Assembly (NCBI GenBank): GCA_037190845.1
Contig: JBBCJI010000024.1
Location: 27,455-91,454, forward strand
Direction: 5' to 3'
DNA length: 64,000 nt
Origin: Flavipsychrobacter sp.
GTDB lineage: Bacteria; Bacteroidota; Bacteroidia; Chitinophagales; Chitinophagaceae
Shown here: positions 29,004 through 51,653 of the stretch, in pieces
How positions within the stretch are numbered: the stretch's first letter is position 1
Layout: every line of letters starts with the position of its first letter
The notes under the pieces: generated by a model
The model's input: only the letters and a program-made list of their open reading frames with translations
Databases searched by the model: none
Told to the model about the DNA's origin: nothing
Position numbers and translations under genes: made by a program

Positions 29004-29135
29004 ACCCCTTCAGTTCTTTGCAAATAATTTTACAGAAATTGCTAAATATTTTTGCAATAATAAGAAATTTTTCTAACTTCGCTTTAGAAAAGTTTGCTTT
29101 TGTACACCGATAAAAACATTTTGCCTGTGGATTAC

Positions 29136-29519: not shown

Positions 29520-29523
29520 TGTT

Positions 29524-30237: not shown

Positions 30238-30246
30238 CAGATCAAT

Positions 30247-30927: not shown

Positions 30928-30977
30928 CCATTTTCATCAACCAATTTTAAACAATCACACTTAATCATTCAATCTCT

Positions 30978-33023
30978 ATGGGAGCATTAACAGACCTGTT
31001 GGGCGGCATGACCTTATTGATCATCGGGGGCGTCGTCTTTTTATTTTTCATCTTGTTGTTTGCCTTTGCCGCATTCTATAAAAAAATCCCCCAGGGCAAG
31101 GCTATTGTGCGAACAGGTGTGGGCGGCAGTAAAGTGGCGTTTAATAAAGGTATGTATGTGATCCCTATTCTGCATAAGATGGAGATCATGGATATTTCGG
31201 TAAAGAAAGTGCAGATCGACCGGCTCGAGCACGATGGCCTGATCTGTAAGGATAACATCCGCGCGGATATTAAAGTGGCCTTTTTTGTGCGCGTGAACAA
31301 AAGCGTGGAAGACGTGCTGAATGTGGCTCAGATCATAGGCTGTGAGCGTGCCAGCGATGTGGAAACGCTCCGTAACCTGTTTGAAGCCAAGTTTTCAGAG
31401 GCGCTGAAAACGGTAGGTAAGAAGTTTGACTTCATCGAGCTGTACGAAGCCCGCAGGGAGTTTCGGGATGAGATCATGAATATCATCGGTACCGATCTGA
31501 ACGGATATATCCTGGATGACTGTGCGATTGATTACCTGGAGCAGACGGAGATCCGCTTTTTGAGTGCAGAAAACATCCTCGATTCTCAGGGCATCAAAAA
31601 GATCACAGAGCTGACTGCAGCCCAGAATATCAATGCCAACCTTATTCGCAGGGAAGAGGAAAAGGTGATCAAAAAGCAGAATGTGGAAGCACGTGAAGCA
31701 ATCCTTGAGCTGGAGCGGCAACTGGCGGAGAAGGAAGAAAAGCAGCGAAGGGAGATAGATAATATCAAAGCGCGCGAGCAGGCAGAAATTCTCAAGGTGC
31801 GTGAAGAAGAGCGTCTGAAATCGCAGAGCGTACGGATCAAGACGGAAGAATCGCTTGCGGTACAGGAAGAAAATAAACTCCGGCAGATCATCATTGCGGA
31901 AAAGAATAAGCAAAGGACCGATGCAGTAGAAACAGAACGTGTAGAGAAAGATCGCGCGTTGGAGCAGACCGAAAGAGAGAAGATCGTGACCCTTGCACAG
32001 ATCGAAAAGGACAAGAATATAGAAGTTGAGCGCAAGAATATCCAGGATGTGATCCGTGAGCGGGTGAAGCTGGAAAAAGGCGTGGTGGAAGAACAGCAGA
32101 GCATGAAGGATATCGAAGCGTTCCGCTCGGTAGAAAGGGAGAAGACTGTGGGTATTACAGAGGCCAGCCGTCAGGCAGAAGAAAAGCTGATCTATACGGT
32201 GAAGGCCGCAGAAGCAGACAAGAAAGCCGCCGAAGAAAAGGCCCGTGAAATGCTGATCGATGCTGAAGCCCGTAAGGAAGCTGCTTCCAAGCAGGCCGAA
32301 GCCCGGAAGATACTGGCCGAAGCTCAGGCGCGTGAAGAAGCTACGCTCGGATTGTCTGAAGCCGAAGTGATGATCGCCAAAGCCGAAGCAGCAGAGATGC
32401 AGGGTAAGGTGGATGCCAATGTGATCGAAAAGATAGCAGAAGCTAAACGTAAGGAAGGACTGATGGAAGCGGAAGTAGCTAAAGAGAAAGCTTTGGCGGA
32501 AGCGGCAGGCATCGAGGAAAAAGCCGAAGCGATGAAGAAGCTCGATGGGGTAGGTAAGGATCACGAAGAGTTTAAGATCCTGGTACAGAAAGATCTGGAT
32601 ATCGCACTGGCTCAGATCAACATCCAGAAAGATATTGCTGATGCTCAGGCCAGCGTGCTTGCGGAAGCATTGAAGAAAGCGAATATCGATATCGTGGGCG
32701 GTGAGACGTTGTTCTTCAAGAATATTGTCAACCAGATATCCAACGCGAAAGGATTTGACCGGTTGATCAACGAAAGTGAAAATGCCACGCATATCAAAAC
32801 AGCCCTGATCGGGGATGGTTCCGCCAACGGCGACCTGCTCGACCGGATCAAGGGATTTGCGGAGAAGTATAATGTTTCCACCGAGGATCTTAAAAATCTG
32901 ACCATTTCCAGCCTGCTGCTGAAGATGCAGCAGCACAGCGAGGGAGAGGATAGGTCTATGATCGTCAAACTTGCGGATATGGCCAGCAGCCTCGGGCTGT
33001 CTAACCGGAAGCTGAACGCGTAA
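30978..33023 (+). CDS. Flotillin (SPFH/band-7) family protein, YqiK-like
   Basis: N-terminal TM helix and SPFH domain (GKAIVRTGVGG...ICKDNIRADIKVAFFVRV), then a long EA-rich coiled coil. Confidence 0.9.
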   Translation: MGALTDLLGGMTLLIIGGVVFLFFILLFAFAAFYKKIPQGKAIVRTGVGGSKVAFNKGMYVIPILHKMEIMDISVKKVQIDRLEHDGLICKDNIRADIKVAFFVRVNKSVEDVLNVAQIIGCERASDVETLRNLFEAKFSEALKTVGKKFDFIELYEARREFRDEIMNIIGTDLNGYILDDCAIDYLEQTEIRFLSAENILDSQGIKKITELTAAQNINANLIRREEEKVIKKQNVEAREAILELERQLAEKEEKQRREIDNIKAREQAEILKVREEERLKSQSVRIKTEESLAVQEENKLRQIIIAEKNKQRTDAVETERVEKDRALEQTEREKIVTLAQIEKDKNIEVERKNIQDVIRERVKLEKGVVEEQQSMKDIEAFRSVEREKTVGITEASRQAEEKLIYTVKAAEADKKAAEEKAREMLIDAEARKEAASKQAEARKILAEAQAREEATLGLSEAEVMIAKAEAAEMQGKVDANVIEKIAEAKRKEGLMEAEVAKEKALAEAAGIEEKAEAMKKLDGVGKDHEEFKILVQKDLDIALAQINIQKDIADAQASVLAEALKKANIDIVGGETLFFKNIVNQISNAKGFDRLINESENATHIKTALIGDGSANGDLLDRIKGFAEKYNVSTEDLKNLTISSLLLKMQQHSEGEDRSMIVKLADMASSLGLSNRKLNA

Positions 33024-33066
33024 ACAGTGCGGACCTGGTCTGCGATTTTAAACAAAGGAAACATGT

Positions 33067-36000
33067 ATGGCAAATACGGATGCTGGTGTAATACTGGATT
33101 CAGGAACTTATGAGATCATTCGCAACCGGCTGCACGAACAGCGTGTCGTGTTGTCGGAGCGGCTGGCAGCGCTGAATGCAGCGAGGAAGGAGATTTTTAG
33201 CTCGGAAGGATTTGAGCTGGTTGCCAATCAGCGGATCACCACCGAGAATAATGGTGTGTCCCGTGGTATTATTGCTTTCGGAGAGTTGTGCATATTCGCG
33301 TACAATGTGCATTTCGGCCTGCGGGAAGATATCCGGTTGGATGATGTGTTTAGTGTCTATAAGTTCACAGGCGGTCATTTTGAACCTCAGCCGCTGACGC
33401 TGATCAGTGATGAGCAGTTTATCGCCGACTTCACCAATCTGTACAAGTATTACCGCCATTCCATCTTTGCCAAGTTCAGCCGTACGGAGCATTACCTGTA
33501 CATGATCTTCCAGACGGGTAAGCATGTGGATGACCGTAAGGCTTTCAAATGGCTGATCAAAGACAATAAGCTGACCTATGTGGATGATCGCAGCATCCAT
33601 GAGGTAAGGCCGGCGGCACAGCACGATTTTGCATGGACCGCTACCAGCCTCGAAGACAGAAGGCTGGGTGTGCATCCGCATATCTCGATCCTGGATAAGG
33701 TTTTTATTGAAGCAGTCGGCGGAGATATCACGTTTAAGATCGAGGATAATACCGATACCGGGAAGGGAATCTATTCGGAACCTGTGCTGAATAAAGACCA
33801 GCAACTGGATGATGCCGATTATTATTATGCCGACCTCGGCAACCTGATCGCTATTAAGATCCGGCCCTATCAGGAGGATTTCCGTACCTATATCTACAAT
33901 GTGCGGACGCGGGAGGTGAAGCCGATACCGATGCTGCTGGATGCCGGTATCCTGCTGCCGGACAATCAGGGGGTGATCTTCCCGAACGGTTATTATCTGC
34001 AGACCGGCGAGTACAAAATTTTTGAATCGGATCTTTCTGATCTTGATTTCATTCGCACGACGGCCTCTCCGAATGGGGAGGACTTCCTCTATGTATTCTA
34101 CCAGCGTACGACGAATACCTATGTGCTCATGTCTTACAACGTGATCATGCAGCAGGTGGAGACGCCCATTATTTGCAATGGCTTTACGGTATTCCCCAAC
34201 GGCAAGCTGATCTACTTCAGGTCTGAGCAGGAAGCCGTACGTCATCATCAGGTACAGATCTGGCAGACGCCCTATACCGAAGTGCTGAAGGAAAATGCGG
34301 CGATGAAAGACAATGCGCTGTACAAGATCGGCAACAAGGACATCGTGGCGGCTATGTCGGAAAGCCAGGAGGTGATCCAGTTGCTGCTCAAGGAAGATTC
34401 TTACGAAGGATTGTACGAGGATCTCTATAAGAAGTCTAACGATATTATTGATGCTTATTTCTGGTTGGGCAATCCGGAAACCTTCGAGTTGTCGGCGCCG
34501 TTGTCCCAGATCAGGGATGTTGCCAGCACTGCCATTGATGAGTTTGCCAAAGTGCAGGCGCAGCGGAAACATGCCGTAGAAGCGCTGTCTGCCATGCAGT
34601 CGCAGGTAGATGCACTGGTCAGCAGGATCAAAAATACGAAGGCCGATTCACTGGATGAGCTCGTGCACCTGCTTGCTGATACCCGGCGGATGCAGGGGGC
34701 TGTAATAGACCTGCTGAATATAAAATATGTAGATCCGGAGGCCGTGCAATCGCTGAAGGATACGTTACAGCAGTATAATCTTTCCGTATCTCAGGACACG
34801 GTGGATTTTTTGCTGAAGGATGAAGCATTGCTGCCTTATGAGCAGAAGGTTGCCGTGCAGAAAGATAAGGTGGCAGGGGTTACGAAGGTGATCGATGCCC
34901 AGGAGATCGATCAGGCGATGAAGGAGATTGCCGCCGAGCTGGAGCTGCTGGTGGATATGCTGAGCGGTCTTAAGATCGAAGACACTACGGAAACCACAAG
35001 GATCATCGAAAAGATATCGCTGATCTTTGCTTCGCTGAATGAGGTGCGGGCAGATCTGGTAAGGGTTACCGGCGCCTTGCAGACCAAAGAGGCGACAGGC
35101 ATCTTCCATGCGCAGATCACGCTGCTGGAACAGAGTATCATCAATTTCCTTGACCTTTCCGATACCCCGGAAAAATGCGAGGATTATCATACCCGGATCA
35201 GCATCCAGATAGAAGAGCTGGAAAGCCGGTTTGCCGATTTCGAGGAATTCGTGCTCCGGATCGCCGACAAGCGGGATGAAGCTGCCCGGGCGTTCAACGG
35301 CAAGAAGGAGCTGCTCATTGAACAGATCAACAAGCGTACCACCTCGTTGGAGCAGATCGGCCTGCGGATCCTAAAAAATGTAGAGAACAAAGCACAAACG
35401 ATGACTTCGCGGGAAAGTCTGTATGCTTTCTTCTCTGCGGATATGATGATCGACAAGGTGCGCAGCTTAGTCAATGATCTGCGGGAAGCCGGGGATGTAG
35501 CCAAGGCAGAAAACCTGGACAACCTGCTGAAGGTAGCCCAGGAAGATGCATTACGCCAGCTCAAAGACCGGACGGAGCTGTTCGTGGATGGCCATAATGT
35601 CATTGCTCTTGGTGCGTATAAGTTTATTGTCAACAAACAGGTGCTAAGCCTGACGATCATCCGCAAAGACCATAAGCTCTATTATCATCTGATAGGCACC
35701 AGCTTTTATAAGGAAGTGACGGAGGCGGAACTGTATCGCTACCGTCATGTATGGGAGCAGGAGCTGGTTTCGGAGACCCCGGCTATCTACCGCGGGGAGT
35801 ATCTTGCCTATCAGGCTTTTCTTGCCGGTTTGTCGCAGGATAAACAATGGGACTTTGCAGCGTTTATCAACGAGCAGGTGGAGCGTGATTATGCAGGCGG
35901 ATATCTGAAAGGTGTGCACAATCAGGATGCACTGCATATATACCAGTACCTGCTTCGCCTGAAGGAGTCATTGGGCATACTGCGCTATGCGCCGGATGTG

Positions 36001-37896
36001 CGCGTGCCCGCACAACTGTTCTGGTTCGGGTTGGAAGAAGAGAGTAAAAACAGGCTGTTGCAGTTGATCAAGGCTGCCTATGCGATCCAGCAGAGCTTCC
36101 CGGGTAATAAGGATTTTGAATTCATGGAGCAGGAAATTGCCGGCCGGTATCAGTCTGCCGGGCTTGCGTATGCGCAGGTGGATGCCGGGCTTGTGGCTCG
36201 CTACCTGTACGATGAGTTTTCCGTGGCCCGCCATTTTACATGCAGCCAGCAGGCGAAGCAGATCCGGAAGGATTTTCAGGAGTTTTTAAGACAGCAGCAC
36301 CGGGCCGATCTCTTTATGGAGGAAACGGGTAATGCCGGTTTTACAGTACAGGAGCGTTTTTATCTGATCCAGCACTGGCTGCAGGCTTATCTGAATTCCC
36401 ACCCGGGAAAGTATGATCCGCGCTATCTGGATGAAGCGGTATGTCTGTTGCTCTTCCCGGATCACGGGTATAAAGAGCGTACGGCATCGGATTATATACT
36501 GGTGGCGGAACTGAAGGGCACGCACAGCGTGATCCATGATCAGCAGTACACCCTGTATTATCATTCTTTCATGGAGAAGATGCGGGCTTATATGCAGGAT
36601 ACGGCGCCGGCCTTTAAGGCTTTTAATGCCCGCAAGGAGGAGCTGGCGAACAGCTACAGGCATGCCTTGAAGATTAATGAGTTTGAACCTAAGGTGCTGA
36701 GTTCCTTTGTGCGGAACCGGTTGATCAACGAAGTCTATTTCCCGCTGATCGGCGCCAACCTGGCGAAGCAGATCGGAGCGGCGGGCGACGATAAGCGTAC
36801 GGCCAGAATGGGTATGCTGTTGCTGGTATCGCCGCCGGGGTATGGTAAGACCACTTTGATGGAATACCTCGCGAGAACCATGGGGCTGCATTTTGTAAAG
36901 ATCAACGGACCTACGATCGGAAATGTCATTACCTCGATCGATCCGGTAGAAGCAACGACCTCCGGCGCGAGGGAGGAGTTGAAGAAGATCAACCTTGCGC
37001 TGGAGATGGCGGATAACGTAATGCTGTACATTGATGATATCCAGCATTGCAGCGCGGCCTTTTTGCAGAAGTTCATCTCTCTGGCAGACGGGCAACGTAA
37101 GATGGACGGCATCTTTGAAGGGGAAAGCAAGACGTATGATCTGCGGGGCAAGCGCTTTTGCGTGGTCATGGCGGGGAACCCTTATACAGAAAGCGGCGAG
37201 CAGTTTAAGATCCCGGACATGCTGGCCAACCGGTCGGATGTATATAACCTCGGCGATGTGATCGGCAATTCGGGGCATCTGTTCCGGCTGAGCCTGATCG
37301 AGAATGCCGTTCAGGAAAACCGTTATCTGCAGCAGATTGCCAACAGGAGCTTTGAGGATCTCTATAAGCTGATCACGTATATCGAAACCCAGTCGGACAT
37401 GCTGCCCGAACTGGAAGGCAACCACAGCAGTCAGGAGGTGGATGATGCGATTGCCGTGCTGAAAAACATCATGTGGATCAGGGATGTAGTGATCCGGGTC
37501 AACCAGCAGTATATTGCCAGTGCGGCGATGAAGGATGCGTACCGGACGGAACCTGCCTTTAAGCTTCAGGGCTCGTACCGGAATATGAATAAAATGGTGG
37601 GCAAGATTGTACCGCTCATGAATCTGGACGAGGTGAAGACGCTGATCCTTTCGCATTACGAAGGCGAAGCCCAGACGCTGACGTCTGATGCGGAAGCCAA
37701 TTTGCTGAAACTGAAAGAGCTGGCGGGGCTGATTACAGAAGACGAGTCAGCACGCTGGGCGCAGATCCAGACCATCTTCCGGCAGAATAATAAATTTGGA
37801 GGGCTTGATCAGTCGGACGTGTCGGGGCAGATGCTGATACAGTTGCATTCGTTTAATGAGCATCTGGAAATGATCGCGAAGGCTTTGAGGAAGTAG
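33067..37896 (+). CDS. Giant (1609 aa) multi-domain protein with C-terminal MoxR/dynein-type (AAA_5-like) ATPase module
   Basis: Beta-rich N-terminal ~420 aa, then about 600 aa of helical/coiled-coil sequence, then Walker A LLLVSPPGYGKTTLMEYLAR and Walker B VMLYIDDIQH with a GKRFCVVMAGNP sensor region. It starts 43 nt after the flotillin stop. Confidence 0.8.
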   Translation: MANTDAGVILDSGTYEIIRNRLHEQRVVLSERLAALNAARKEIFSSEGFELVANQRITTENNGVSRGIIAFGELCIFAYNVHFGLREDIRLDDVFSVYKFTGGHFEPQPLTLISDEQFIADFTNLYKYYRHSIFAKFSRTEHYLYMIFQTGKHVDDRKAFKWLIKDNKLTYVDDRSIHEVRPAAQHDFAWTATSLEDRRLGVHPHISILDKVFIEAVGGDITFKIEDNTDTGKGIYSEPVLNKDQQLDDADYYYADLGNLIAIKIRPYQEDFRTYIYNVRTREVKPIPMLLDAGILLPDNQGVIFPNGYYLQTGEYKIFESDLSDLDFIRTTASPNGEDFLYVFYQRTTNTYVLMSYNVIMQQVETPIICNGFTVFPNGKLIYFRSEQEAVRHHQVQIWQTPYTEVLKENAAMKDNALYKIGNKDIVAAMSESQEVIQLLLKEDSYEGLYEDLYKKSNDIIDAYFWLGNPETFELSAPLSQIRDVASTAIDEFAKVQAQRKHAVEALSAMQSQVDALVSRIKNTKADSLDELVHLLADTRRMQGAVIDLLNIKYVDPEAVQSLKDTLQQYNLSVSQDTVDFLLKDEALLPYEQKVAVQKDKVAGVTKVIDAQEIDQAMKEIAAELELLVDMLSGLKIEDTTETTRIIEKISLIFASLNEVRADLVRVTGALQTKEATGIFHAQITLLEQSIINFLDLSDTPEKCEDYHTRISIQIEELESRFADFEEFVLRIADKRDEAARAFNGKKELLIEQINKRTTSLEQIGLRILKNVENKAQTMTSRESLYAFFSADMMIDKVRSLVNDLREAGDVAKAENLDNLLKVAQEDALRQLKDRTELFVDGHNVIALGAYKFIVNKQVLSLTIIRKDHKLYYHLIGTSFYKEVTEAELYRYRHVWEQELVSETPAIYRGEYLAYQAFLAGLSQDKQWDFAAFINEQVERDYAGGYLKGVHNQDALHIYQYLLRLKESLGILRYAPDVRVPAQLFWFGLEEESKNRLLQLIKAAYAIQQSFPGNKDFEFMEQEIAGRYQSAGLAYAQVDAGLVARYLYDEFSVARHFTCSQQAKQIRKDFQEFLRQQHRADLFMEETGNAGFTVQERFYLIQHWLQAYLNSHPGKYDPRYLDEAVCLLLFPDHGYKERTASDYILVAELKGTHSVIHDQQYTLYYHSFMEKMRAYMQDTAPAFKAFNARKEELANSYRHALKINEFEPKVLSSFVRNRLINEVYFPLIGANLAKQIGAAGDDKRTARMGMLLLVSPPGYGKTTLMEYLARTMGLHFVKINGPTIGNVITSIDPVEATTSGAREELKKINLALEMADNVMLYIDDIQHCSAAFLQKFISLADGQRKMDGIFEGESKTYDLRGKRFCVVMAGNPYTESGEQFKIPDMLANRSDVYNLGDVIGNSGHLFRLSLIENAVQENRYLQQIANRSFEDLYKLITYIETQSDMLPELEGNHSSQEVDDAIAVLKNIMWIRDVVIRVNQQYIASAAMKDAYRTEPAFKLQGSYRNMNKMVGKIVPLMNLDEVKTLILSHYEGEAQTLTSDAEANLLKLKELAGLITEDESARWAQIQTIFRQNNKFGGLDQSDVSGQMLIQLHSFNEHLEMIAKALRK

Positions 37897-37951
37897 TAAA
37901 TCCACTATTTTCTACTGTCTGAAATATGTGGTACTTAGAATCCTTTTCAGC

Positions 37952-39853
37952 TTAAAATAGTTTATTAATTTCGATAAACATTTTTTCAAAATTATCTAAT
38001 GTTGAGGCTGAAAAAAATGTCTTGTCTACGCCTAATTGGTTTAACTTATTTGCTGGTCTGTAATGATTAAATCTATCCTTACCAATTACTTTGTTTATTT
38101 GTTTTAGTATGGTATCAATGCTTGTATCAAGGTCTGTGACCTTTATTTCCGCAAACTCTTTGTCAAACGCAAGGTTAAATAGTTTTAGATATTCTTCTTT
38201 TGTAAACAGGTCTTCGATGTCAGCCGTTTTTGAGCCGTTATTGGAAAATTCATCAAAGAATCTGATGTTTTTGTCCTTGATTATTTTGTGACGAATTAAA
38301 TCTTCAACTCTTTGCTTGCCCTTTTGATCAGTGAACGTATCAAGTAGGCAAACAACATTCAATTTTTGGCCTCTAAGTAGTGAGATAAAAGTGGTAACCT
38401 TATCTAAACCTCCAACAGGAACGATTGTAATATTGTCCTTTAATTTACCCCGTTTTTCTATTTCAAGAATATTTGAAAGAACCGTTAAGTAAAGTAGATC
38501 CGCTGGACCCTCTACTAATAAATTGTGTTTTGAAATAAATAGATTTTGTGCAATGTCATATCCTAATGCAGCTTGTAAGGGGAATAAAGTATCTGGGTCT
38601 TTTTCTTGAATTGTATCTGAAATAATTGTTCCTTCATCAGTTTCAAGGCAAGTACGTACTCTATTTAATTTCTCTGACTCTACCATGAAAGGGGAATGAG
38701 TTGTATAGATGATTTGATATTTTTTTGAAAGATCTTCAATGAAACGAATTAGGTCGCTCTGTGCAGAAGCATGAAGATTTAACCCCGGCTCATCTAGTAG
38801 CAAAATGTAATCAGAATTTTTGTCTGCTTGAATTTTGCTAAACCAAATAATAAAGGAAAAAAACCAGTTAAAACCTTTGCTTCTTCTGTCAAGTGGAAGA
38901 GATATTTTGTGCCTTTGGCTTCTAACGCGAATGTCAAGATACTTTTGATTGTTTTTGTCTTGAATACGAAACTCAATGTCTAAATTCTTGTTAGTTGACC
39001 AATATTTAAAAATTTCGTTAGTAATCTTGTTTGAGGAAGCCTCAAGTAAAGCCACAAATCTTTCATAGTCGCTTGAATTAATGATTTCATCTGGTTTAAT
39101 CCTTGCTAATTCGAATAATGCTTTAGCAGTTTTGGATTTCTCATCATTAGTGCCATTGTTAAGTTCATTTATATCGATTTTCCCCCCTAAATGATAATAA
39201 TCGTCAAAGTACCAAAACTTAGGCATGTTCGGCTGAACCCAATTACGGAATATGTGATATCCTAAAGGATTTTGCCAGTTTGTTTTTGCGGCAGCATCTA
39301 CTAACTTCTTTACTTCTGTCTTTAATGCTGTCAAATCTGTGTCACCTTCTAATTGAGGTATTGCTTCAAGTTCAGAAAGTGAATTCAATTTGTTTATTAC
39401 CTCTCTGGTTTCCTTTGTTAACACTAATGACTGAATTTTAGCGTCTAAATATTTTTTTTGGTTAGCTCCAATGCCAGTAACTGTGTTGCCTTCTTTATAA
39501 TGATAGTTGTAAGTAAATTCTTTTGTTGTAAAAACACCTTTTCCGAATTCTGTGTCAATTTGCGAGAGAAGTTCGGTGCTAATTTCATAAGTACAATTAA
39601 GTATTTCCACATCTTCATCACTATTTTCAAAATCGACCAATTCATTCCTTGGAAAGTCTTGAGTTCTGTCAAACTTGAAATCTGCATCGTCTGTGAAATA
39701 ATTTGTCTTAGCAAGTGCTTGCAAAAAGCTGGTTTTACCTGATTCATTCATTCCGACAATTGTAGTAATTGAAGGTTCAATTTCTACACTTTGAGGTTTT
39801 TGGATGCTTTTGTACTTATTTAACGTAGCATTTTTAAGTTTAATATTCATCAC
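37952..39853 (-). CDS. OLD-family nuclease (N-terminal ABC-type ATPase + C-terminal TOPRIM)
   Basis: Walker A GMNESGKTSFLQAL, Walker B/D-loop ILLLDEPGLNLHASAQ, H-loop TTHSPFMV, then TOPRIM LLVEGPADLLYL ... CLLDTFTD. Local GC is about 25-30%, against about 50% in the flanks. Confidence 0.85.
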   Translation of the reverse strand: MMNIKLKNATLNKYKSIQKPQSVEIEPSITTIVGMNESGKTSFLQALAKTNYFTDDADFKFDRTQDFPRNELVDFENSDEDVEILNCTYEISTELLSQIDTEFGKGVFTTKEFTYNYHYKEGNTVTGIGANQKKYLDAKIQSLVLTKETREVINKLNSLSELEAIPQLEGDTDLTALKTEVKKLVDAAAKTNWQNPLGYHIFRNWVQPNMPKFWYFDDYYHLGGKIDINELNNGTNDEKSKTAKALFELARIKPDEIINSSDYERFVALLEASSNKITNEIFKYWSTNKNLDIEFRIQDKNNQKYLDIRVRSQRHKISLPLDRRSKGFNWFFSFIIWFSKIQADKNSDYILLLDEPGLNLHASAQSDLIRFIEDLSKKYQIIYTTHSPFMVESEKLNRVRTCLETDEGTIISDTIQEKDPDTLFPLQAALGYDIAQNLFISKHNLLVEGPADLLYLTVLSNILEIEKRGKLKDNITIVPVGGLDKVTTFISLLRGQKLNVVCLLDTFTDQKGKQRVEDLIRHKIIKDKNIRFFDEFSNNGSKTADIEDLFTKEEYLKLFNLAFDKEFAEIKVTDLDTSIDTILKQINKVIGKDRFNHYRPANKLNQLGVDKTFFSASTLDNFEKMFIEINKLF

Positions 39854-40028
39854 TCTTCGTTTTCGTAGTTATTTGAATTATTGTCTGATAGTATTACCAC
39901 TAAAGGCTTGGGTATTACCGAAGACGGAGTTCAATACAAAGCTCAATCTTAGAATCGAAATTCAACTTTGGACAAATGCCCAATCGAAGTTCTTCTGCCC
40001 ACTTTGGGTAATACCATGTTAGGGGCTT

Positions 40029-41168
40029 CTATTTTCTGTGATATACCGTCACCTTATTGTTTCTTAAAATCATTAAATAGTTTTTTACTTTGTAATCTTC
40101 CCCTTCTGCATTTTTAATTATTGCATCATAAGTATCATCTGTCAATACATTATAACCAATTCTGTCTTTACATTTTTGATAAACAGATTTCATAAATGAC
40201 TTATTTGCGGCATTCCCAATTAAGTAAATAGTTTCATTTCCATGGTTAATCTTTTCAATGTTTTTTATATAAGTTTGTTCTCCTAGGTTGTTTACTTTGT
40301 ATTGTTTACCAATAATTCTAATTGCAAATTTGCAATACTGTCCGTTAAAGTCATTTATTGAATCTTCTCGTAGTTTTCTATTTGCATAATTATTCAAATA
40401 GCTAATTAGCTGTTTGACTTCATTATATATTTTGTTAGCATCTCGTTTTTGAGCAAAAACTTTCTCTCCTAAAAATGTTAACTCTTGCACAAGTATTGGG
40501 TAGAATATTCCTGCTTTATCTATGTCGTGATATGTTTCAAATAGAGAGGCTATTTTATTATTATCCATCTTCTCTTTCATAAAATCTTGAACGAATTGAT
40601 CAAGAATTTCTGATTTTTCGTGTTTCAGAAGATCATAACAAGCGTATAAATCAAGCGATTCTCTCTGGTATTTGGCGATATATGATTTAGCTTTCCTTAA
40701 AAATGCGTAAGAAATAAATGCCAATGAAGCGTTAACAATGTTCTTGTTTTGATTATCACTCTTATGTAATCTAACTATTAGTTCACCATTTTTAATATAA
40801 GTCTCAGCATTTTGTTTTTCAACATCAACCCAAAAAATATTTATTTTATTAATGTCAATGTGTTTTACTTTTTTAGACACAGTTTTTAGATAGTCATTTA
40901 CTTTCCCTTGAAGGTCATACTTTATATATGTTTTGTCAAATTTATTCGAAACGTAATTCGCGAATCTGGTAATTAATGCAACAAGTTTTTCAAACTTTTC
41001 TGGATTTTTGAGATAATAAATAAAAAGTGCAATCAATGCTACAGTTGAAACAGTCCACATAGAAATATGCAAGTTGAAGTTAAAATTTATGTCGTCAAAA
41101 AGGCTAAAACTTGTGTTCATTAGCATATTCTGTAAATAGTTTAATTGCTTCTGGGCTGTCACAAACAA
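40029..41168 (-). CDS. Hypothetical protein with single N-terminal TM helix, unknown function, in OLD operon
   Basis: 379 aa, K/N/Y-rich and AT-rich, with TM segment MWTVSTVALIALFIYYL. The true start may be an internal Met at 41126 or 41057. It lies 175 nt upstream of the OLD gene on the same strand. Confidence 0.55.
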   Translation of the reverse strand: MFVTAQKQLNYLQNMLMNTSFSLFDDINFNFNLHISMWTVSTVALIALFIYYLKNPEKFEKLVALITRFANYVSNKFDKTYIKYDLQGKVNDYLKTVSKKVKHIDINKINIFWVDVEKQNAETYIKNGELIVRLHKSDNQNKNIVNASLAFISYAFLRKAKSYIAKYQRESLDLYACYDLLKHEKSEILDQFVQDFMKEKMDNNKIASLFETYHDIDKAGIFYPILVQELTFLGEKVFAQKRDANKIYNEVKQLISYLNNYANRKLREDSINDFNGQYCKFAIRIIGKQYKVNNLGEQTYIKNIEKINHGNETIYLIGNAANKSFMKSVYQKCKDRIGYNVLTDDTYDAIIKNAEGEDYKVKNYLMILRNNKVTVYHRK

Positions 41169-41394
41169 TTTTTATGTCACCTGATTCAGGAAAAATTGAA
41201 TAGAGGTTTTCAAAGGTGATTACTTTCCCTGTGAATTTACATTTTAATTTACCTTCATTTAATTTCTCTATCAGTCCTAAATTTTTGAGTAATTGATTTA
41301 GGTCTTCATCATGCACTGCGTTTAGGTTTCTTTTATTCATATCTCTGCCGTATGTAGTCTTCGTTTTTACTGGTAACTTGCATATACTTTCCAT
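41104..41394 (-). CDS. Small (96 aa) hypothetical protein, first gene of OLD operon
   Basis: Clean ORF with non-repetitive sequence, same strand and AT-rich composition. Its end overlaps or abuts the 379-aa gene. Confidence 0.45.
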   Translation of the reverse strand: MESICKLPVKTKTTYGRDMNKRNLNAVHDEDLNQLLKNLGLIEKLNEGKLKCKFTGKVITFENLYSIFPESGDIKIVCDSPEAIKLFTEYANEHKF

Positions 41395-41999
41395 GAACCT
41401 TCGCTTACCCCGTTCATTTTTATGAATAGGCTAAGGTTCATAGAGAGTTGTTTTTTGTACTTTACAAATATAAAATATTTTTACAAAGTTTAAAATGGAG
41501 ATTAAATATTTTGTAAACTCTTTGTGTTTAAATGTGTGTTATTTCCGTAGTGGCTCCTATATCTCCTTTAACCCCGCTCAGTGTATTATGTAATTTATGT
41601 ATTTATATCTTGAATGTAATCTCATTTTTATAATAATAACATTGAATTTCAACAAGAAATATAGATAAATTTACTTGTTGGCATTATCTCCTTCCCCTAA
41701 CTTCGTTACCAGTAAAATATCGCGAACCTTCAATCAATTCGTTGAAGCAATCGCTTTGAATCTCGTATAAAGAAACCTGAGAATTTCAACAGCAACGGGA
41801 TAATAAGTAGATTGCCTGCGTTACGGCGCGGGCGTTCTCTTATTCGTTGCTGTGGGCTTCTCAGGGCCTCTTTATACAATAAGCAGAGCACCGCGCTTTT
41901 TTCATGCCTCAATATTCAGCATCGCAAAAAGCCGCTCCGGGTTCATCGCCGATCTTCACATCAGACAGAAGGTGCGCCTATCGTTCACCTTGCTGAAAA

Positions 42000-42851
42000 A
42001 TGAAGATCATGGATGCCCCGATATACCCCGAACAGCAACAGCCTGCAGACGAGCTGAAGGAAACCCTTAACGCACTGCTCCGCATCGTACCCGCAGATAT
42101 GGTGTTCTGCAAAGACGGCTGCCTGTATATCGTACCCGGCGCCACGGCCGTCCATAGTGTGCACGAGTACAAGGTCATGCTCGACGGCGCCGACTGGAAT
42201 CGTACCGGCTATGTCTGGTCTTTATATGCGCTCGATGACATCCGCAGGGGCATAGACGAAGGGAGGCTGTTTTACAACACGGTGTTCGCCGCGCCCTGGC
42301 TGGTGTACGACAACGGCCGCTCGGCATTGCCGCTTCCCTTGCCCTTACGCGTAGCACAAACGCAGCAGCACGGCAGCGAAACGTTTGTTTTCGGCTACCG
42401 TCAATCGCAGACGTTCTACCGGTGCGCGGCTTCGCTTGGTTCGGCCGAAGAATCGGGCGTGGCGGCGTTTATGCTGCACCAGTCGGTGGAGCTGCTGTTA
42501 CGCGCCTTTATCATCGCCGTAACGGGTCAGGAGGTGAAAACGCATACCCTGTCCGACCTGATGAAGCATACGCTCCGTTATGCGCCGGGACTGAAAGCCT
42601 GTCGTACCGCTTCGGGCACATCGGTCCACCATCTGCCGGACCGGCTGGAAAAGGCTTATGTCTGCGGTCGGTATTCGCCGCATTTCCAGATTGCGCCGGC
42701 AATACTGCCGGAACTGTACGAACAGGTTGGGTTATTACAGGAGGCATTGAAAAAAACATTTGCCCGCCTGATGGAGGCGTATGGGCTTTGCGGCCGGCAG
42801 GAGGCTGCAGTGTTTCATAGATCGGAAGGGATGAAACGGATGTCTGCATAA
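42000..42851 (+). CDS. HEPN-like domain protein (N-terminal domain unassigned)
   Basis: C-terminal ~130 aa FMLHQSVELLLRAFIIAVTGQEVKTHTLSDLMKH...GRYSPH resembles a HEPN helical bundle with an R-x(3-6)-H motif. GC is about 60%. The C-terminal 130 aa are duplicated at 50412..50819. Confidence 0.5.
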   Translation: MKIMDAPIYPEQQQPADELKETLNALLRIVPADMVFCKDGCLYIVPGATAVHSVHEYKVMLDGADWNRTGYVWSLYALDDIRRGIDEGRLFYNTVFAAPWLVYDNGRSALPLPLPLRVAQTQQHGSETFVFGYRQSQTFYRCAASLGSAEESGVAAFMLHQSVELLLRAFIIAVTGQEVKTHTLSDLMKHTLRYAPGLKACRTASGTSVHHLPDRLEKAYVCGRYSPHFQIAPAILPELYEQVGLLQEALKKTFARLMEAYGLCGRQEAAVFHRSEGMKRMSA

Positions 42852-42874
42852 AGCCGGGTGGGCAGGAATCCGGG

Positions 42875-42996
42875 CCATCTTCCGGCAGACAATAAGTTTC
42901 GAGGGCTTGATCAGTCGGGCGACTTGGGGGTAGATGCTGATAATACCCAACTCGTTTAGCGAACATTCGGAAATGATCACGGGGTGGGTGACGAAG
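42875..42996 (+). repeat. Degenerate copy A of the last ~120 nt of the giant AAA gene (compare 37776..37896)
   Basis: By-eye alignment gives about 80% identity over ccatcttccggcaga...ggaaatgatc... It lies immediately after the stop of the HEPN-like ORF. Confidence 0.7.
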
Positions 42997-43115
42997 TTGT
43001 TGGCGAGTAAGATCAGCGGAACGTTATTGGAAGGGTGTAAAAGGTTTTCATCACTATGTGAATTATCAAAACTTTCATTTTTTGCAAGTTTTGATAATTT
43101 CAAAGCATATAGTAT

Positions 43116-43367
43116 TTAGCCATTTTTTTGCTTATCGGCTTTTAGCGCTGCCAAGTGCTTTTTTGCGTCGAAATTTTTGGCAATGCCGCTTTCAATTCCT
43201 ACGTGAATTGCATTTTTCAAAATTTGGATTTTGTTTTCTTCTTCTTCTAAGAGTCGAAGGCCGGCTCTGATTACTTCGCTTGCATTTTTGTAACGTCCCT
43301 GAGACACGCTATTATCAACAAATTCTTCAAAATAGTTTCCAAGTGATACGGATGTATTTCGTCCCAT
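43116..43367 (-). CDS. parD: ParD-type (RHH) antitoxin
   Basis: MGRNTSVSLGNYFEEFVDNSVSQGRYKNASEVIRAGLRLLEEEE is ParD/RHH-like. It is 95% identical to 51200..51451. Its cognate parE is reduced to 6 codons (MAKYYML*) at 43101..43121. Confidence 0.85.
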   Translation of the reverse strand: MGRNTSVSLGNYFEEFVDNSVSQGRYKNASEVIRAGLRLLEEEENKIQILKNAIHVGIESGIAKNFDAKKHLAALKADKQKNG

Positions 43368-43405: not shown

Positions 43406-43450
43406 CTCTGGTGCCGGTTTTGTGTTAAAGTTCATGCACACAGCAGCGTT

Positions 43451-43569
43451 TCCAGAAGGATAATAAGTTTGGAGGGCTTGGTCAGTCGGACGGCATGGCG
43501 CAGATGAAGATATGACTGTGCTCGTTTAACGGGCATCCGGAAATGATCGCGAGGGCTTTGAGGAAGCAG
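43451..43569 (+). repeat. Degenerate copy B of the giant gene 3' end (stop codon mutated TAG to CAG)
   Basis: ...ggaaatgatcgcgagggctttgaggaagcag against the original ...ggaaatgatcgcgaaggctttgaggaagtag. It is nearly identical to copy C at 51544..51653. Confidence 0.75.
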
Positions 43570-46839: not shown

Positions 46840-47514
46840 TTATAGACCGATTTTATTGTCATAACTGAAATATGCTTCAATTTCTGCTCTGTGATATTCA
46901 ACAATCCAGTCATTTCTTTTTATGTAAATGTCCCGAATTTTGTCTGCTTTGTCGCTCCAAACAAAACATCCTCTGTCATCATACATTTGAAATGCTTTGT
47001 CGGTTGCCGGATCGAAAAAGAAAATTCTTTGGTTTATACTCGGGTTAAAGCCCATTTCGTTGTTGGCAATTCCATTCAGAATGTTTTTGACATTGATGTC
47101 TTTAATAGGCAGTTTGCCAATTATAATTCCGACGTTCTCTTTTTCTGGAACGTCATTCCCGTTTTCATCTGTTGTGAAGTAGCGAGTGTTTACCGTTTCC
47201 AATTTATTATAGAATTGCTCGAAGCTGTCGGCAGGAAATTGTTTATGCAAGTAGTCGTTTGAGGCGCTAAAAATATCTTCGTCTTGGTATTCATAAATAA
47301 GAATGAAAATTTCGTGTGTCGAGTCATTAAATGTCTCGTTGAATATTGTCAAAGCCCTATTCGTCGAGTAAGTTACCCGCTCAATTGTCCCATTTTCTTT
47401 TTCTTCTCCAAGTTCAAACCGAATGTGAACATGTCCTCCAAGTGAATGTTCTGTGTCTATTTTCGATCCGGTGTAAACCCTGTCTAAATATGATTGTAAC
47501 TCTTGTCTTAACAT
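46840..47514 (-). CDS. Hypothetical cytoplasmic protein encoded directly downstream of the helicase
   Basis: 224 aa with no signal peptide and no recognisable catalytic motif. Confidence 0.55.
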   Translation of the reverse strand: MLRQELQSYLDRVYTGSKIDTEHSLGGHVHIRFELGEEKENGTIERVTYSTNRALTIFNETFNDSTHEIFILIYEYQDEDIFSASNDYLHKQFPADSFEQFYNKLETVNTRYFTTDENGNDVPEKENVGIIIGKLPIKDINVKNILNGIANNEMGFNPSINQRIFFFDPATDKAFQMYDDRGCFVWSDKADKIRDIYIKRNDWIVEYHRAEIEAYFSYDNKIGL

Positions 47515-47593: not shown

Positions 47594-50317
47594 TCACCTC
47601 CACTTATTCACATGCTCAATCTTGTCTTCAAATTGTGCAGCCAATGATTTAATCCTTGACTTCAGTAATAATTGTCTTCCCTCGATTGTTCGTGTAAATA
47701 TCAGGTCGCAGGCGCCAACAAGCTGTTCCCATCGGCTTTTGAAATATTCAGCCAGGTTCTTGTTTTTTCCGAGTACCTCAGGAACGGCATGATAATCTTT
47801 TTGTTTCATGAACAGCATAAACCTGTTCTTCCGGATAATTACATATCTGGGGTTCTCAATGGGGGCAATTATTTCCTGCAGCGCATTTATGAAGGCTGAC
47901 TGCTCAAAAGTGGTTCCTCCTTCCAGATGGCAATAAACGGTGCCCCAACGATTCACCGAAGATGCCACTTTCAACTGTGTGACTTCCGTATGAATGGTTC
48001 CTGCCTTAATTAACGACTGCATAAGCGTCTCGCCAATCCGTTGCATGTCTTTTGCAATATCCCGGTATTTGAAGTAGAGTCTGAGTGTTTTGTATGTCAG
48101 TCTGCCGTAAATTACTATTCCTACTGTCCCCAGCAAGGCGATGAAAATATACAGATCATTTATTGTTCTGAAGTTTTTTGCTGCGCGTCCCAGCCCCTGC
48201 AGGCTTTCTAAACCAAAACCTATTAATCCGGAACTCAATGTAGCAAAAAGATTTGCAATTGTCTTTCTCAGGTACATGGATTTGACCTCGCGGTATGATC
48301 TTTCTTCCGGGAATGGGATTTTTATTTCTTCTGTAAGGGTTACGCCGGTTGCCAGCGCTTCTTTCCAGCGCTGTTTCAGACTTTCTCTATCACCGGCATA
48401 AGTAAACATTTCCGTGTTTTTCCTCGCTGCTACAACCTCCTGATGTATGTCTTCCGGTAAATTGAGTCGGCCTATCCCGTTTTCTATTCCGGGTTCTTGG
48501 CTAAAGGAAACCCCTACAAAACTTCTGAAACGACGCTTTAGTAAATCAAAATCCTCGCCTCCTGTCTCCGATGTAGGATCGATACAGACTATATGCCAGA
48601 TATTTCCTGTTTTTTCCTGATTGTCTTTTTGTGTTCGAATCGCTCTCCCGCGCATTTGATTGGACAAAACGAAAGAGCCCACAAAGCTTCCCAGTATTAA
48701 GGAATTGATGGCGGGCGCATCCCACCCTTCTCCCAAGAGTGATTTTGTGCCAATTAAAACTTCAATTTCACCCCGTTGAAAAATCTGGGTAACAATATGA
48801 ACAATATCATTTTTCAGCTGGCCGGTCGGATTGATTATCACGTAATTTGTATCAAAAGGGGCAGTACTCGAATTGATCTGTGTAATTCCATATTTGGCCG
48901 CTTTTGCTTCAAATGCAGGATAAGCTTTTGTGGGAATAATGATTACGGATCCGGTAAGTACGGCCATCTTTTTGTTATCTGTGTTGGACCGTCTTAGTTT
49001 TTCAAAAATGGGTATTACGCCTATCTTGTTTAATTCAAGTGGGTTATCCGGAGTGCTTGTGAGAAACTCTTTCCGGATAAAGTCGGAAAGGATGACCAGG
49101 CGGAGCGAGTTGCCTAACTGTTTATATTCAAAGTCAACAATCTCTTTAATGCTGTTGAGTTTGCTGATACTGGATGTCAGAAATCCGGTTAGTTTTTTGT
49201 TGTGGGAAAAGTTGATTTTTCTTCTTTCAATGGCTCCTGATCTGCGCAGCCGGTTTTCAAGGTGTTTTCTATGTGTTTCAAATTCTTTGAAATGTTCTTT
49301 CCCTTTGTAGAGATAGAAGTCGAGTAGCGTTTCCGTCCATTCGTAGTCGAGTTCCGGTATTTCGATTTTCTTATCGCCTATTACTTCAAGATGGGTTTCG
49401 GGTATATCTCTGCCGTTGGCGTGCAGGAAAATCAAGGAAGCCGAATAAGAGGATAGGTTGTTATAGATCCAGTCTAACTGATCTGCAGGGTTTAACCAGA
49501 TAGGGTGTTGTTCTATCGCCCGGACAATGGTTTCATCACGCTTTATTTCCTGAAACAGTTGCTCCATCCGCAGTCTGAAATCAGCGATGCTTTGGTTTTC
49601 ATCTTCTGTCGGAAAGGTAAAATGCACATAGTCCTGATGTGGGCACAGGTCACCTTCTATCACTAATTCAGGTACAGAAATCTCGGTGTCTACGGGGCCG
49701 TTGAGTGTAATGTATCGCTGCCATTCAGTTGCAGTAACATCATAGGGTGGGGTTGCTGTAAGCCCGACGATCACCGGGTCTGTTTTTTCTTTAACCATTG
49801 TCAACGTTCGCCACCATTCACTTTTCAGGTGGTGAGCCTCGTCTACAACGATAGTTCTGATGTTTTGTTCGATTAGTTTGCTTACAACGTTTTCAAGATT
49901 CTGATTTGTGGAAAGGCCATTGCCATTTTCTGTTGCTATCTCCTCATCTTCAGGGTCTTCATCCTGAATGTTCTGATTGTTGCAGGCGGCGTGCATTCCC
50001 TGGTAGGTAGCGACTGTTAGAAATTTCGGATTCCTGATATCTGTAGAAATCCATTCCGGAGTTATAGTGGTTTGAAGAAAGAGTTCACAAAAGCGTTGTA
50101 TCCACTGGTTGCGAATGGCTATTGACGGGGCAAGTATAAGTGTTGCATTGTTCAGCCGGATAGCTACTTCCAACCCTAAGACCGTCTTACCCGACCCCGG
50201 TGGAGCGATTACGTGTAAATGTTTATCCGTTAAGTGTGTTTCAAGTTCATCAAGTACCCGTTGTTGATATTTTCTCCAACGGTATTTGAATTTTATGTCT
50301 TTGGGAAATTCAGTCAA
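47594..50317 (-). CDS. SF2 DEAD/DEAH-box helicase (ResIII-like N-domain) with C-terminal two-TM segment and about 180-aa tail domain
   Basis: Motif I APPGSGKT, motif II VVDEAHH, motif III TATPP, motif VI QMRGRAIRT. Residues ~690-740 form two hydrophobic helices (LIGFGLESL..., IFIALLGTVGIVIYG). Confidence 0.85.
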   Translation of the reverse strand: MTEFPKDIKFKYRWRKYQQRVLDELETHLTDKHLHVIAPPGSGKTVLGLEVAIRLNNATLILAPSIAIRNQWIQRFCELFLQTTITPEWISTDIRNPKFLTVATYQGMHAACNNQNIQDEDPEDEEIATENGNGLSTNQNLENVVSKLIEQNIRTIVVDEAHHLKSEWWRTLTMVKEKTDPVIVGLTATPPYDVTATEWQRYITLNGPVDTEISVPELVIEGDLCPHQDYVHFTFPTEDENQSIADFRLRMEQLFQEIKRDETIVRAIEQHPIWLNPADQLDWIYNNLSSYSASLIFLHANGRDIPETHLEVIGDKKIEIPELDYEWTETLLDFYLYKGKEHFKEFETHRKHLENRLRRSGAIERRKINFSHNKKLTGFLTSSISKLNSIKEIVDFEYKQLGNSLRLVILSDFIRKEFLTSTPDNPLELNKIGVIPIFEKLRRSNTDNKKMAVLTGSVIIIPTKAYPAFEAKAAKYGITQINSSTAPFDTNYVIINPTGQLKNDIVHIVTQIFQRGEIEVLIGTKSLLGEGWDAPAINSLILGSFVGSFVLSNQMRGRAIRTQKDNQEKTGNIWHIVCIDPTSETGGEDFDLLKRRFRSFVGVSFSQEPGIENGIGRLNLPEDIHQEVVAARKNTEMFTYAGDRESLKQRWKEALATGVTLTEEIKIPFPEERSYREVKSMYLRKTIANLFATLSSGLIGFGLESLQGLGRAAKNFRTINDLYIFIALLGTVGIVIYGRLTYKTLRLYFKYRDIAKDMQRIGETLMQSLIKAGTIHTEVTQLKVASSVNRWGTVYCHLEGGTTFEQSAFINALQEIIAPIENPRYVIIRKNRFMLFMKQKDYHAVPEVLGKNKNLAEYFKSRWEQLVGACDLIFTRTIEGRQLLLKSRIKSLAAQFEDKIEHVNKWR

Positions 50318-51543: not shown

Positions 51544-51653
51544 GCAATAAGTCTGGAAGGTTTGGTTGGTAGGATGGCTTGGGGCAGATGAAGATACGAC
51601 TGTGCTTGTTTAACGGGCATCCGGAAATGACCGCGAGGGCTTTGAGGAAGCAG
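51544..51653 (+). repeat. Degenerate copy C of the giant gene 3' end
   Basis: Aligns to 37776..37896 and is almost identical to copy B. Confidence 0.75.

Follow-up and report, generated by a model that had tools for sequence, protein, structure and literature searches.

A low-GC island in a 64,000-nt stretch of a Flavipsychrobacter sp. genome (contig JBBCJI010000024.1, positions 27,455 to 91,454; hereafter the window, in which all coordinates are counted) probably consists of two separate units: a stand-alone OLD-family nuclease gene and an independent two-gene pair, here called SMALL and MID, which encodes a small protein and a larger membrane-anchored one. The two would be adjacent mobile cassettes lying at an insertion hotspot at the 3′ end of a DUF3686-AAA ATPase gene. 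A first-pass annotation of this DNA had instead joined the three genes into a single OLD-based anti-phage system. That grouping fails when homologous loci are compared: 0/21 loci with the pair hold an OLD homologue, and 0/5 contexts of OLD orthologues hold the pair. What is new in the island is the pair itself and not any partnership with OLD.

The Three Island Genes Are Not Conserved as One System

Three co-directional open reading frames (ORFs) occupy the minus strand of the island, at 41104–41394 (96 aa), 40029–41168 (379 aa) and 37952–39853 (633 aa), the last being the OLD gene, just as first described. The 96-aa and 379-aa frames exist, but by homologues and gene calls their real products are 78 aa and 365 aa. 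The 379-aa ORF begins at TTG, whereas homologues and gene callers use the ATG at 41126, giving 365 aa (MID). Since its homologues measure 77–85 aa, the small gene probably starts at M19, at 41340, giving 78 aa (SMALL).

The pair loci come from a scan of one genome per species, which yielded 21. A neighbourhood check across them found that the genes of the 379-aa and 96-aa frames are not conserved beside OLD elsewhere, and no OLD gene occurs in the pair contexts collected later (L038, L043, L044, L047, L048 and others). A direct search of all OLD loci detected MID and SMALL in L028 and L029 alone, both of them copies of the window locus. Homology between the window and L001, whose MID is 91% identical, is confined to the pair, starting about 50 nt before the SMALL start and ending 8 nt past the MID stop.

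The OLD Gene Is a Single-Gene, Class 1-Type Member of Its Family

The 633-aa protein (37952–39853, minus strand; 632 aa from the ATG at 39850) is an OLD-family ATPase-TOPRIM protein, as had been proposed. It matches Pfam AAA_15 (6.8e-24), AAA_21 (3.9e-15) and OLD-like_TOPRIM (2.1e-7), and the PADLOC “Old” model (4e-26). Each of the four motifs originally cited is present in the translation: Walker A (K40, in GMNESGKT), Walker B (D354/E355, in LLLDEPG), the H-loop (H386, in TTHSPF) and the TOPRIM motif VEGPAD. Alignment places the TOPRIM residues at E448 and D452 (VEGPAD), D505 (with D509) and D545/E547. Among solved structures, the nearest in sequence is the class 1 OLD of Thermus scotoductus (6P74; 6.8e-10). 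There, metal A has the catalytic residues E377/D431/D433 and metal B D381/S478/E480; in P2 Old the corresponding sets are E398/D453/D455 and E402/D541/E543 (PMC7049728). E448/D452 align with Thermus E377/D381, and D545-I-E547 with P2 D541/E543. The catalytic set expected from the first reading is therefore largely intact, except that the DxD position reads DTFTD: D505 corresponds to the first Asp, the following one is at position 509 instead of 507 (D509), and the Pfam match stops at D505. The LLD[TS]FTD form of this motif is conserved in OLD orthologues from three phyla.

Classes of OLD proteins are assigned by genomic context in the published scheme (PMC10568477), and by that scheme the window OLD is class 1-type, that is, single-gene. 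Its neighbours are the convergent DUF3686-AAA gene downstream and MID upstream. No UvrD/GajB gene, the partner in class 2 (Gabija), lies beside it or in any OLD-orthologue context. Class 3 (retron) would call for an adjacent reverse transcriptase and an ncRNA, but neither neighbour is a reverse transcriptase and there is no Rfam match. No split AriB-like partner of class 4 (PARIS AriA/AriB) was found, the ATPase and TOPRIM parts being fused in one 633-aa protein. This removes a false lead, because the locus offers no new OLD architecture, only a class 1-type OLD.

The protein shares with the class 1 OLDs (P2 Old, Thermus OLD 6P74, Vibrio cholerae Vc OLD and Escherichia coli YbjD/OldB) the fusion of an N-terminal ABC-type ATPase to a C-terminal TOPRIM domain, the Walker A, Walker B and H-loop motifs, the metal A Glu and the metal B ligands, and it likewise has no conserved partner gene. 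Similarity to these proteins is nevertheless remote (6.8e-10 to 6P74, 26% identity to P2 Old). At 633 aa, the window OLD also differs in having about 80 extra residues beyond the metal B motif, in its DTFTD motif, and in belonging to a subfamily that is at least 70% identical across Bacteroidota, Paenibacillus and candidate-phyla bacteria and that moves as an integron-type cassette. GajA of Gabija has the same OLD ATPase-TOPRIM architecture, and PADLOC GajA models match the window OLD at 1e-18 and weaker. Unlike GajA, however, the window OLD has no adjacent GajB, and its best solved-structure match is a class 1 protein.

The family is large, with more than 7,800 matches at E ≤1e-20, and at least 120 clusters at least 70% identical to the window protein are spread across Bacteroidota, Paenibacillus and candidate-phyla bacteria; the window OLD is an ordinary, well-travelled member of the single-gene class. 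Orthologues at 72–91% identity occupy five unrelated contexts with no neighbour in common: in Paludibacter beside CBASS and AbiH, in a Chitinophagales genome on their own with UDG and MatE on either side, near DndB in Paenibacillus, in co-directional arrays with Shedu, HNH/HIT and Fic genes, and in an array with a CdiI_3 pair. By analogy with P2 Old, Thermus OLD and Vibrio cholerae OLD, the protein would need no partner and would work as a two-metal TOPRIM nuclease under ATP control, nicking or degrading the DNA of invading phages. Stand-alone OLDs with anti-phage activity include Vc OLD of V. cholerae, a nickase that blocks ICP1 replication (PMC12392090), E. coli YbjD (PMC13261556) and also P2 Old. 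A highly conserved OLD cassette found across phyla in defence-rich arrays adds to the evidence that single-gene OLDs defend. According to a 2023 review, OLDs of class 1 do not occur in the vicinity of other defence genes (PMC10568477). The window OLD and its orthologues, in contrast, do lie near such genes, and the defence-rich arrays bear on that statement.

SMALL and MID Form a Widespread Two-Gene Unit

SMALL (41104–41340, minus strand) overlaps with its 3′ end the start of MID (40029–41126, minus strand) by 23 nt. Overlaps of 1–23 nt between the two genes, in the window and at other loci, resemble the gene layout of type II toxin-antitoxin systems. The AlphaFold (AF2) model of MID (predicted local distance difference test score, pLDDT, 77; predicted template modelling score, pTM, 0.69) has four parts: an N-terminal hydrophobic helix, predicted as a transmembrane helix at about residues 21–40, a long helix, a zincin-like helical domain and a C-terminal Alba/IF3-C-like alpha/beta domain. 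The N-terminal hydrophobic segment, followed by Lys/Arg, is retained in 27/27 homologues, in agreement with the single transmembrane helix noted at first, and the Lys/Arg residues after the helix suggest that the bulk of MID is cytoplasmic. Two catalytic assignments were considered for MID and ruled out. It is not a zincin peptidase, having neither HExxH nor any conserved His, and its C-terminus does not carry a HEPN-like Rx4-6H motif, the spacing being R-x7-H and the motif falling in a beta-strand and the disordered tail.

Longer relatives of MID keep the N-terminal 320 residues and continue into a different C-terminal domain: cold-shock (CSD; four cases), NusA-like KH (one), OB_RNB (one), OST-HTH/LOTUS (one) or TPR (one). 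All of these except TPR bind nucleic acids, mostly RNA, and the interchangeability of nucleic-acid-binding C-termini thus independently supports a nucleic-acid role for the predicted Alba-like domain of MID. Most homologues of SMALL have a zinc-ribbon-like CxxC...Cx5C pattern together with an invariant KCKF motif, and the clade of the window lacks two of the Cys residues. In this Flavobacteriia-like clade two Cys are left (KCKFT...VCDSPEA), and in some members one. Judged from these alignments, zinc binding by the SMALL family seems to be dispensable or to have been lost.

Neither protein belongs to a named family or matches a PADLOC model, in line with the first-pass statement that the 379-aa protein lacks a recognisable domain; of the three proteins of the locus, the 633-aa one matches a named system, PADLOC “Old”. 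Searches of Pfam, NCBIfam, PHROGs and PADLOC gave nothing significant for MID or SMALL. In PADLOC-DB 2.0 MID had no match at E up to 0.1 and SMALL only noise at E = 0.019–0.031, and a profile search of PDB sequences matched neither. Pfam domains in 115 distant MID relatives were C-terminal add-ons only. Homologues carry source names that are all “hypothetical” or “cold shock domain-containing”, and the 143 close homologues of MID are all without a name. The pair was not found in the literature on Alba, on transmembrane proteins and defence, or on domain-centric discovery. A profile search of 1.84 billion representative proteins nonetheless recovered MID relatives in 1,063 clusters at E ≤1e-3 and 798 at E ≤1e-10, counted as clusters at 50% identity.

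A SMALL homologue lies directly upstream of MID, translationally coupled to it, in 19/21 loci; of the two exceptions, one is cut by a contig end and the other is a degraded copy. No other neighbour of MID is conserved among the 21. The pair is also intact in the further contexts L038, L043, L044, L047 and L048. In L038, from Solirubrobacterales, a 612-aa CSD-bearing MID variant follows a SMALL homologue (hhalign 95.8%, E 7.8e-9) with a 1-nt overlap. This distant, high-GC pair (L038:5396–7839) is situated between clpX and an ECF sigma factor gene, and a further 89-aa ORF precedes it. One of 2.9 million IMG/VR phage contigs carries the same pair arrangement, beside terminase genes, and the single full-length structural match to MID in BFVD comes from a siphovirus; the plasmid and phage GenBank collections held no MID homologue. 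The pair is thus conserved as a unit in Bacteroidota, candidate-phyla bacteria, Solirubrobacterales and at least one phage.

Several of these loci lie among conflict-related genes. The pair sits between hsdS and hsdR of type I restriction-modification (R-M) operons that also hold a Fic pair (L002, L003), adjoins a type I R-M system (L001, L018), and separates a type II methylase from a TdeIII endonuclease, leaving gaps of 3–4 nt (L019). It also occurs upstream of a STAND NTPase (L009), downstream of a DUF4145 protein (L020), at the end of the tra operon of a CTnDOT-like integrative and conjugative element (ICE) beside ArdA in Bacteroides uniformis (L044), and beside a DRT UG17 RT-SLATT system and HipBA in Odoribacter (L047). 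In L048–L050 it is followed by a GajB-like helicase and two Gp49/helix-turn-helix (HTH) modules. Other pair loci have housekeeping neighbours only. This descriptive pattern supports a conflict-system role, either defence or toxin-antitoxin.

The helicase in L048 (8080–9912; also in L049 and L050) is a 551-aa UvrD-type protein that follows the pair and matches PADLOC GajB at 9.2e-21, with no GajA nearby. We considered an operon of the pair with this helicase and ruled it out: the 168-nt “55-aa ORF” between them begins with the cassette hallmark TGCCCAAC, and is most likely an attC site, in which case the helicase would be a solo cassette.

The Pair and OLD Are Integron-Type Cassettes in Relatives

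Integron cassettes that carry defence systems have already been described (bioRxiv 10.1101/2024.07.02.601719; PMC12614218), and we take the features of attC sites as given there (PMC12614218). On either side of the L001 pair stands a 132-nt repeat; the two repeats are 95% identical, start ...CTAAC, end GTTAGC and form a long imperfect hairpin (bottom strand −33.5 kcal/mol, z = −4.9). G|TTAGCGGT closes the upstream repeat and its exact complement, ACCGCTAAC, opens the downstream one, so that the boxes GTTAGCGGT / ACCGCTAAC pair at 9/9 positions. The outer boxes of both repeats differ from this inner pair. Complementary inner boxes with different outer ones are what is expected of an attC split at G|TT on integration. 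An R″ box complementary over 9–10 nt is found for the pair in L001, L004, L005, L010 and L016. More broadly, 7/25 pair contexts, L048 among them, have an 8–10-nt word ending AAC that lies 1–8 nt after the MID stop and has a GTT-initial complement upstream of SMALL. In six loci other than the window the GTT boundary is 24–51 nt upstream of SMALL, and 0–4/200 shuffles reach such a match.

The OLD gene shows the same organisation. In L034, where OLD is 88% identical to that of the window, five copies of a 49-nt arm ending GTT separate successive ORFs. There, 4/4 consecutive cassettes have an attC 5′ box exactly complementary over 9–10 nt to their own 5′ end after G|TT: GTTGTGTGC / GCACACAAC, GTTAGCTGTA / TACAGCTAAC (the OLD cassette itself, 10/10), GTTGTGCGT / ACGCACAAC and GTTATATGCA / TGCATATAAC. 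L031 has 7–8-nt versions of this pattern. Both the pair and OLD are integron-type cassettes in these relatives. The arrays themselves (L034:5322–10038 and L031:4040–7000), both from uncultured Bacteroidota, have attC-like sites of about 185–190 nt and carry OLD, Shedu (SduA_C), an HNH/HIT protein, a CdiI_3 pair and many ORFs with no assigned function.

These units resemble the described defence cassettes in being compact and co-oriented, in their imperfect-palindrome attC sites with recombination at G|TT, in an R″ box complementary to the cassette's own 5′ end, and in the OLD, Shedu and HNH defence cargo of the same arrays. They differ in that the attC-like sites of L034, at about 185–190 nt, are longer than typical, and in that the window has no integrase or attI, retains only degenerate attC-like sites and holds its cluster inside an island bounded by repeats of a gene 3′ end. 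The view of integron cassettes as defence biobanks is in this way extended to Bacteroidota-type arrays with long attC-like sites.

Probable Cassette Traces in the Window

Boundaries comparable with those of the relatives can be placed in the window. The word GTTAGGGG occurs only twice in the 64 kb, at 41694–41701 on the minus strand and at 40018–40025 on the plus strand, where it reads CCCCTAAC; the two copies are exact complements (8/8) that bracket the pair, a match reached by 1/200 shuffles. The first, which falls at the GC transition and at the island end of the first-pass annotation, would be the 5′ boundary (G|TT) of the pair cassette, and CCCCTAAC stands three nt past the MID stop. In the 175-nt gap between MID and OLD, an attC-like imperfect palindrome (39897–40025, minus strand) reads R″ CCCCTAAC, the 3-nt spacer ATG, L″ GGTATTACC, then L′ GGTAATACC, the 6-nt spacer CAAGCC and R′ T|TTAGTGG, with a 9-nt L″/L′ pair and asymmetric spacers. 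Its arms resemble the attC arms of L034. The window, L030 and L034 share a conserved sequence from (G)TTAGTGGTAA onward, 50–51 nt ahead of the OLD start, with TTAGTGGTAAyaCTAT at −51/−51/−50, respectively, despite differing upstream genes. The (G)TTAGTGG boundary 51 nt before the start codon puts the start of the OLD cassette at about 39904. Another GTT site, GTTACCAG, lies 37 nt ahead of the start of SMALL and lines up with the boundary seen in L001. At the other end, the 55-nt spacer from the OLD stop to the AAA stop (37897–37951, minus strand), compared with the L034 and L031 sites, contains at most a degenerate remnant of the OLD attC (GTACCAC...GTGGATTTAC). A search for a structured RNA, riboswitch or terminator in the MID–OLD gap gave a fold z of −1.46, no Rfam match and a weak terminator-like hairpin (39983–39968).

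The leader of the pair cassette (41341–41693, minus strand) is AT-rich and includes a TAnnTTTG box (41465–41472) and a 22-nt inverted repeat (41386–41407 / 41427–41448). The box and the AT-rich inverted repeats reported at first do exist, but the box is not enriched in the window (38 observed against 49.7 expected), so that by itself it is no evidence of a promoter.

From these boundaries we consider it probable that the window holds a fossil cassette cluster without an integrase. Cassette 1 (about 39904 to 37897) would contain OLD alone, and cassette 2 (41700 to about 39905) the translationally coupled SMALL and MID. Origin as cassettes would account for the foreign base composition, for the single orientation of the genes, for the 175-nt spacer and for the shuffling of neighbours. 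In the window genome OLD would probably be transcribed by read-through from the pair promoter, its own cassette leader being only 51 nt long, which would make the three genes an accidental operon and not a system.

Several observations weigh against this reconstruction. The R′ site of the window has TTT (TTTAG) where GTT is expected, and the gap folds no better than shuffles (z = −1.46), so its structure alone looks like chance. A crude attC rule is unspecific, giving 8 matches in the window where shuffles give 3.2. Hardly anything is left of the attC after OLD, the 55 nt there containing a remnant at most. The pair has its GTT boundary 361 nt ahead of SMALL, compared with 24–51 nt in other genomes. 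No tyrosine recombinase or integron integrase was found in the 64 kb or in the OLD loci with jackhmmer and IntI1 and Bacteroides probes. The gap has no canonical promoter motif, hence there may be co-transcription and possibly functional interplay of the pair with OLD. Finally, because DxD has become D505/D509, the nuclease competence of OLD is a prediction.

Some of these points favour an island that is not integron-derived, in which the 8-nt inverted match and the palindrome arose by chance and OLD, the pair and a neighbouring HEPN gene came together on one integrative element targeting the AAA 3′ end. Four direct copies of that 3′ end do bound the variable region, the window has no integrase or attI, R′ is TTT and not GTT, and the attC rule makes structure alone weak. 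We still regard this origin as unlikely, because the pair and OLD are attC-bounded in relatives, the window boundaries fall on the cassette boundaries of those relatives, and the arms of the gap element are like the attC arms of L034. Furthermore, the two explanations are compatible, since a cassette cluster can ride an integrative island. A far less probable reading keeps the three genes as one new OLD defence system whose membrane and small proteins sense infection or regulate OLD. Adjacency on one strand, the 51-nt OLD leader and the lack of a recognisable promoter motif in the gap make co-transcription probable, and in L048–L050 the pair is closely followed by the GajB-like UvrD helicase, so that relatives of both Gabija halves are found beside it. 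The association with OLD is, however, unique to the window locus (absent from about 25 other pair contexts, as from the five OLD-orthologue contexts), and an attC-like site separates the pair from OLD. In addition, the L048 helicase is most likely another cassette, given the TGCCCAAC start of the “55-aa ORF”, and closely related OLD genes stand alone between housekeeping genes. Two adjacent cassettes thus remain the preferred reading.

Possible Functions of the Pair

What the pair does can be approached through its architecture and neighbourhoods. With low to moderate confidence, we infer a conflict module, either toxin-antitoxin-like or of the abortive-infection kind, whose effector binds RNA and is tethered to the membrane. 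In such a module SMALL would restrain MID, and upsetting the balance, for example through infection or loss of the cassette, would let MID bind RNA at the membrane. That the pair is a true anti-phage system we put at somewhat below an even chance. Slightly more tentative is the broader proposal of a new, widespread two-gene anti-phage or abortive-infection family with a membrane-tethered RNA-binding effector or sensor and a zinc-ribbon-like control partner. Members of this proposed family would combine the zincin-like scaffold with interchangeable Alba, CSD, KH and LOTUS modules and would spread via integron cassettes, R-M operon inserts, ICEs and phages. Whatever its role, the pair is a large unannotated two-gene family, with more than 1,000 clusters at 50% identity, a compact size of 1.4 kb, a clear architecture and a conflict-system neighbourhood.

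Defence or toxin genes are known inside R-M operons, such as PrrC or RloC between hsd genes, and serve here as an analogy only. Like them, the pair is found between hsdS and hsdR (L002, L003), as well as between methylase and endonuclease (L019), and MID has a predicted RNA-binding module. In contrast to PrrC and RloC, to which it has no sequence or fold relation, MID is membrane-anchored and has no ATPase or nuclease motif.

Plain addiction offers a different account, in which the pair is a toxin-antitoxin module that stabilises cassette arrays, ICEs and R-M operons with no anti-phage role. Two-gene cassettes of chromosomal integrons with their own promoters are often toxin-antitoxin systems. 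The pair fits this picture as a two-gene cassette with its own long leader, whose small first gene overlaps the larger gene after it by 1–23 nt at every locus, and as cargo of a CTnDOT-like ICE. Yet SMALL has no recognisable DNA-binding antitoxin fold and MID is unlike any known toxin, while embedding in R-M operons and the DRT, STAND and OLD neighbours fit defence at least equally well; we think pure addiction rather unlikely. Even less probable is that the pair is no conflict system at all and supplies an accessory membrane-tethered RNA-binding or regulatory factor, for example in RNA localisation or stress response. The distant CSD variant between clpX and an ECF sigma factor gene, the several loci with housekeeping neighbours only, and the general RNA-binding character of C-terminal Alba, CSD, KH and LOTUS domains are consistent with such a role. 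A patchy distribution across phyla, carriage on an integron cassette, an ICE and a phage, and repeated insertion inside R-M operons argue against it.

Composition of the Island and Probable Insertion at the AAA Gene End

The guanine-cytosine (GC) fraction is about 0.52 up to 37.8 kb, 0.28–0.35 over 37.9–41.6 kb and 0.53–0.59 at 41.8–42.9 kb. By feature it is 0.513 for the DUF3686-AAA gene (33067–37896), 0.329 for OLD, 0.281 for MID, 0.30 for both SMALL and the leader, and 0.573 for the HEPN gene. Low GC sets in immediately 3′ of the AAA stop codon (TAG, 37894–37896), exactly where the first-pass annotation had placed it. The 25–30% quoted there holds for MID, SMALL and the leader (0.28–0.30) but is slightly too low for OLD (33%). 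Foreign origin of the island is supported.

The last 110–130 bp of the DUF3686-AAA gene are present as four direct copies, the genuine end included. Relative to the functional end (37765–37896, plus strand; copy 0), the others, all on the plus strand, are copy 1 at 42868–42981 (77%, E = 2e-18), which closes the first island (37897–42867), copy 2 at 43450–43569 (80%, E = 5e-26) and copy 3 at 51546–51653 (75%, E = 3e-15), which marks the distal edge of the low-GC variable region. The region from 37.9 to 51.65 kb looks like the product of successive insertions into the AAA 3′ end, each bringing a replacement end, and the copies point to site-specific entry of islands here more than once. Insertion at the end of this gene would explain why GC drops exactly at the stop codon.

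The first segment (37897–42867) contains OLD, the pair and the high-GC HEPN gene. The HEPN-domain protein (283 aa; Pfam 5e-8) is encoded in a segment of GC 0.57 (41702–42867), divergently from the pair cassette, with AT-rich DNA on one side and a copy of the AAA 3′-end repeat on the other. L030, whose OLD is 91% identical, has a similar HEPN gene near that OLD. The second segment, between two AAA repeat copies, holds only an orphan ParD (43116–43367, minus strand; Pfam 1.7e-24) with no recognisable ParE. The ORF at 42735–43103 was considered as its ParE and rejected, having no Pfam match and running antisense over the end of the HEPN gene and the repeat copy. In the third segment are a 907-aa ResIII/DEAD helicase (47594–50317, minus strand) with a weak PADLOC PbeA match (3.4e-12), a DUF3885 protein (46840–47514, minus strand) and ORFs of 491, 181 and 165 aa, which may be further defence cargo.

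Upstream of the island, a conserved-looking operon (29094–37896, plus strand) ends with the 1609-aa DUF3686 + DUF7902 + AAA ATPase. It also encodes a YbjN/CesT-like protein (130 aa), a PspA/IM30 protein (237 aa) and proteins of 226 and 681 aa with no Pfam match. The AAA ATPase together with PspA, which is bacterial ESCRT-III-like, may form a membrane-remodelling or stress system.

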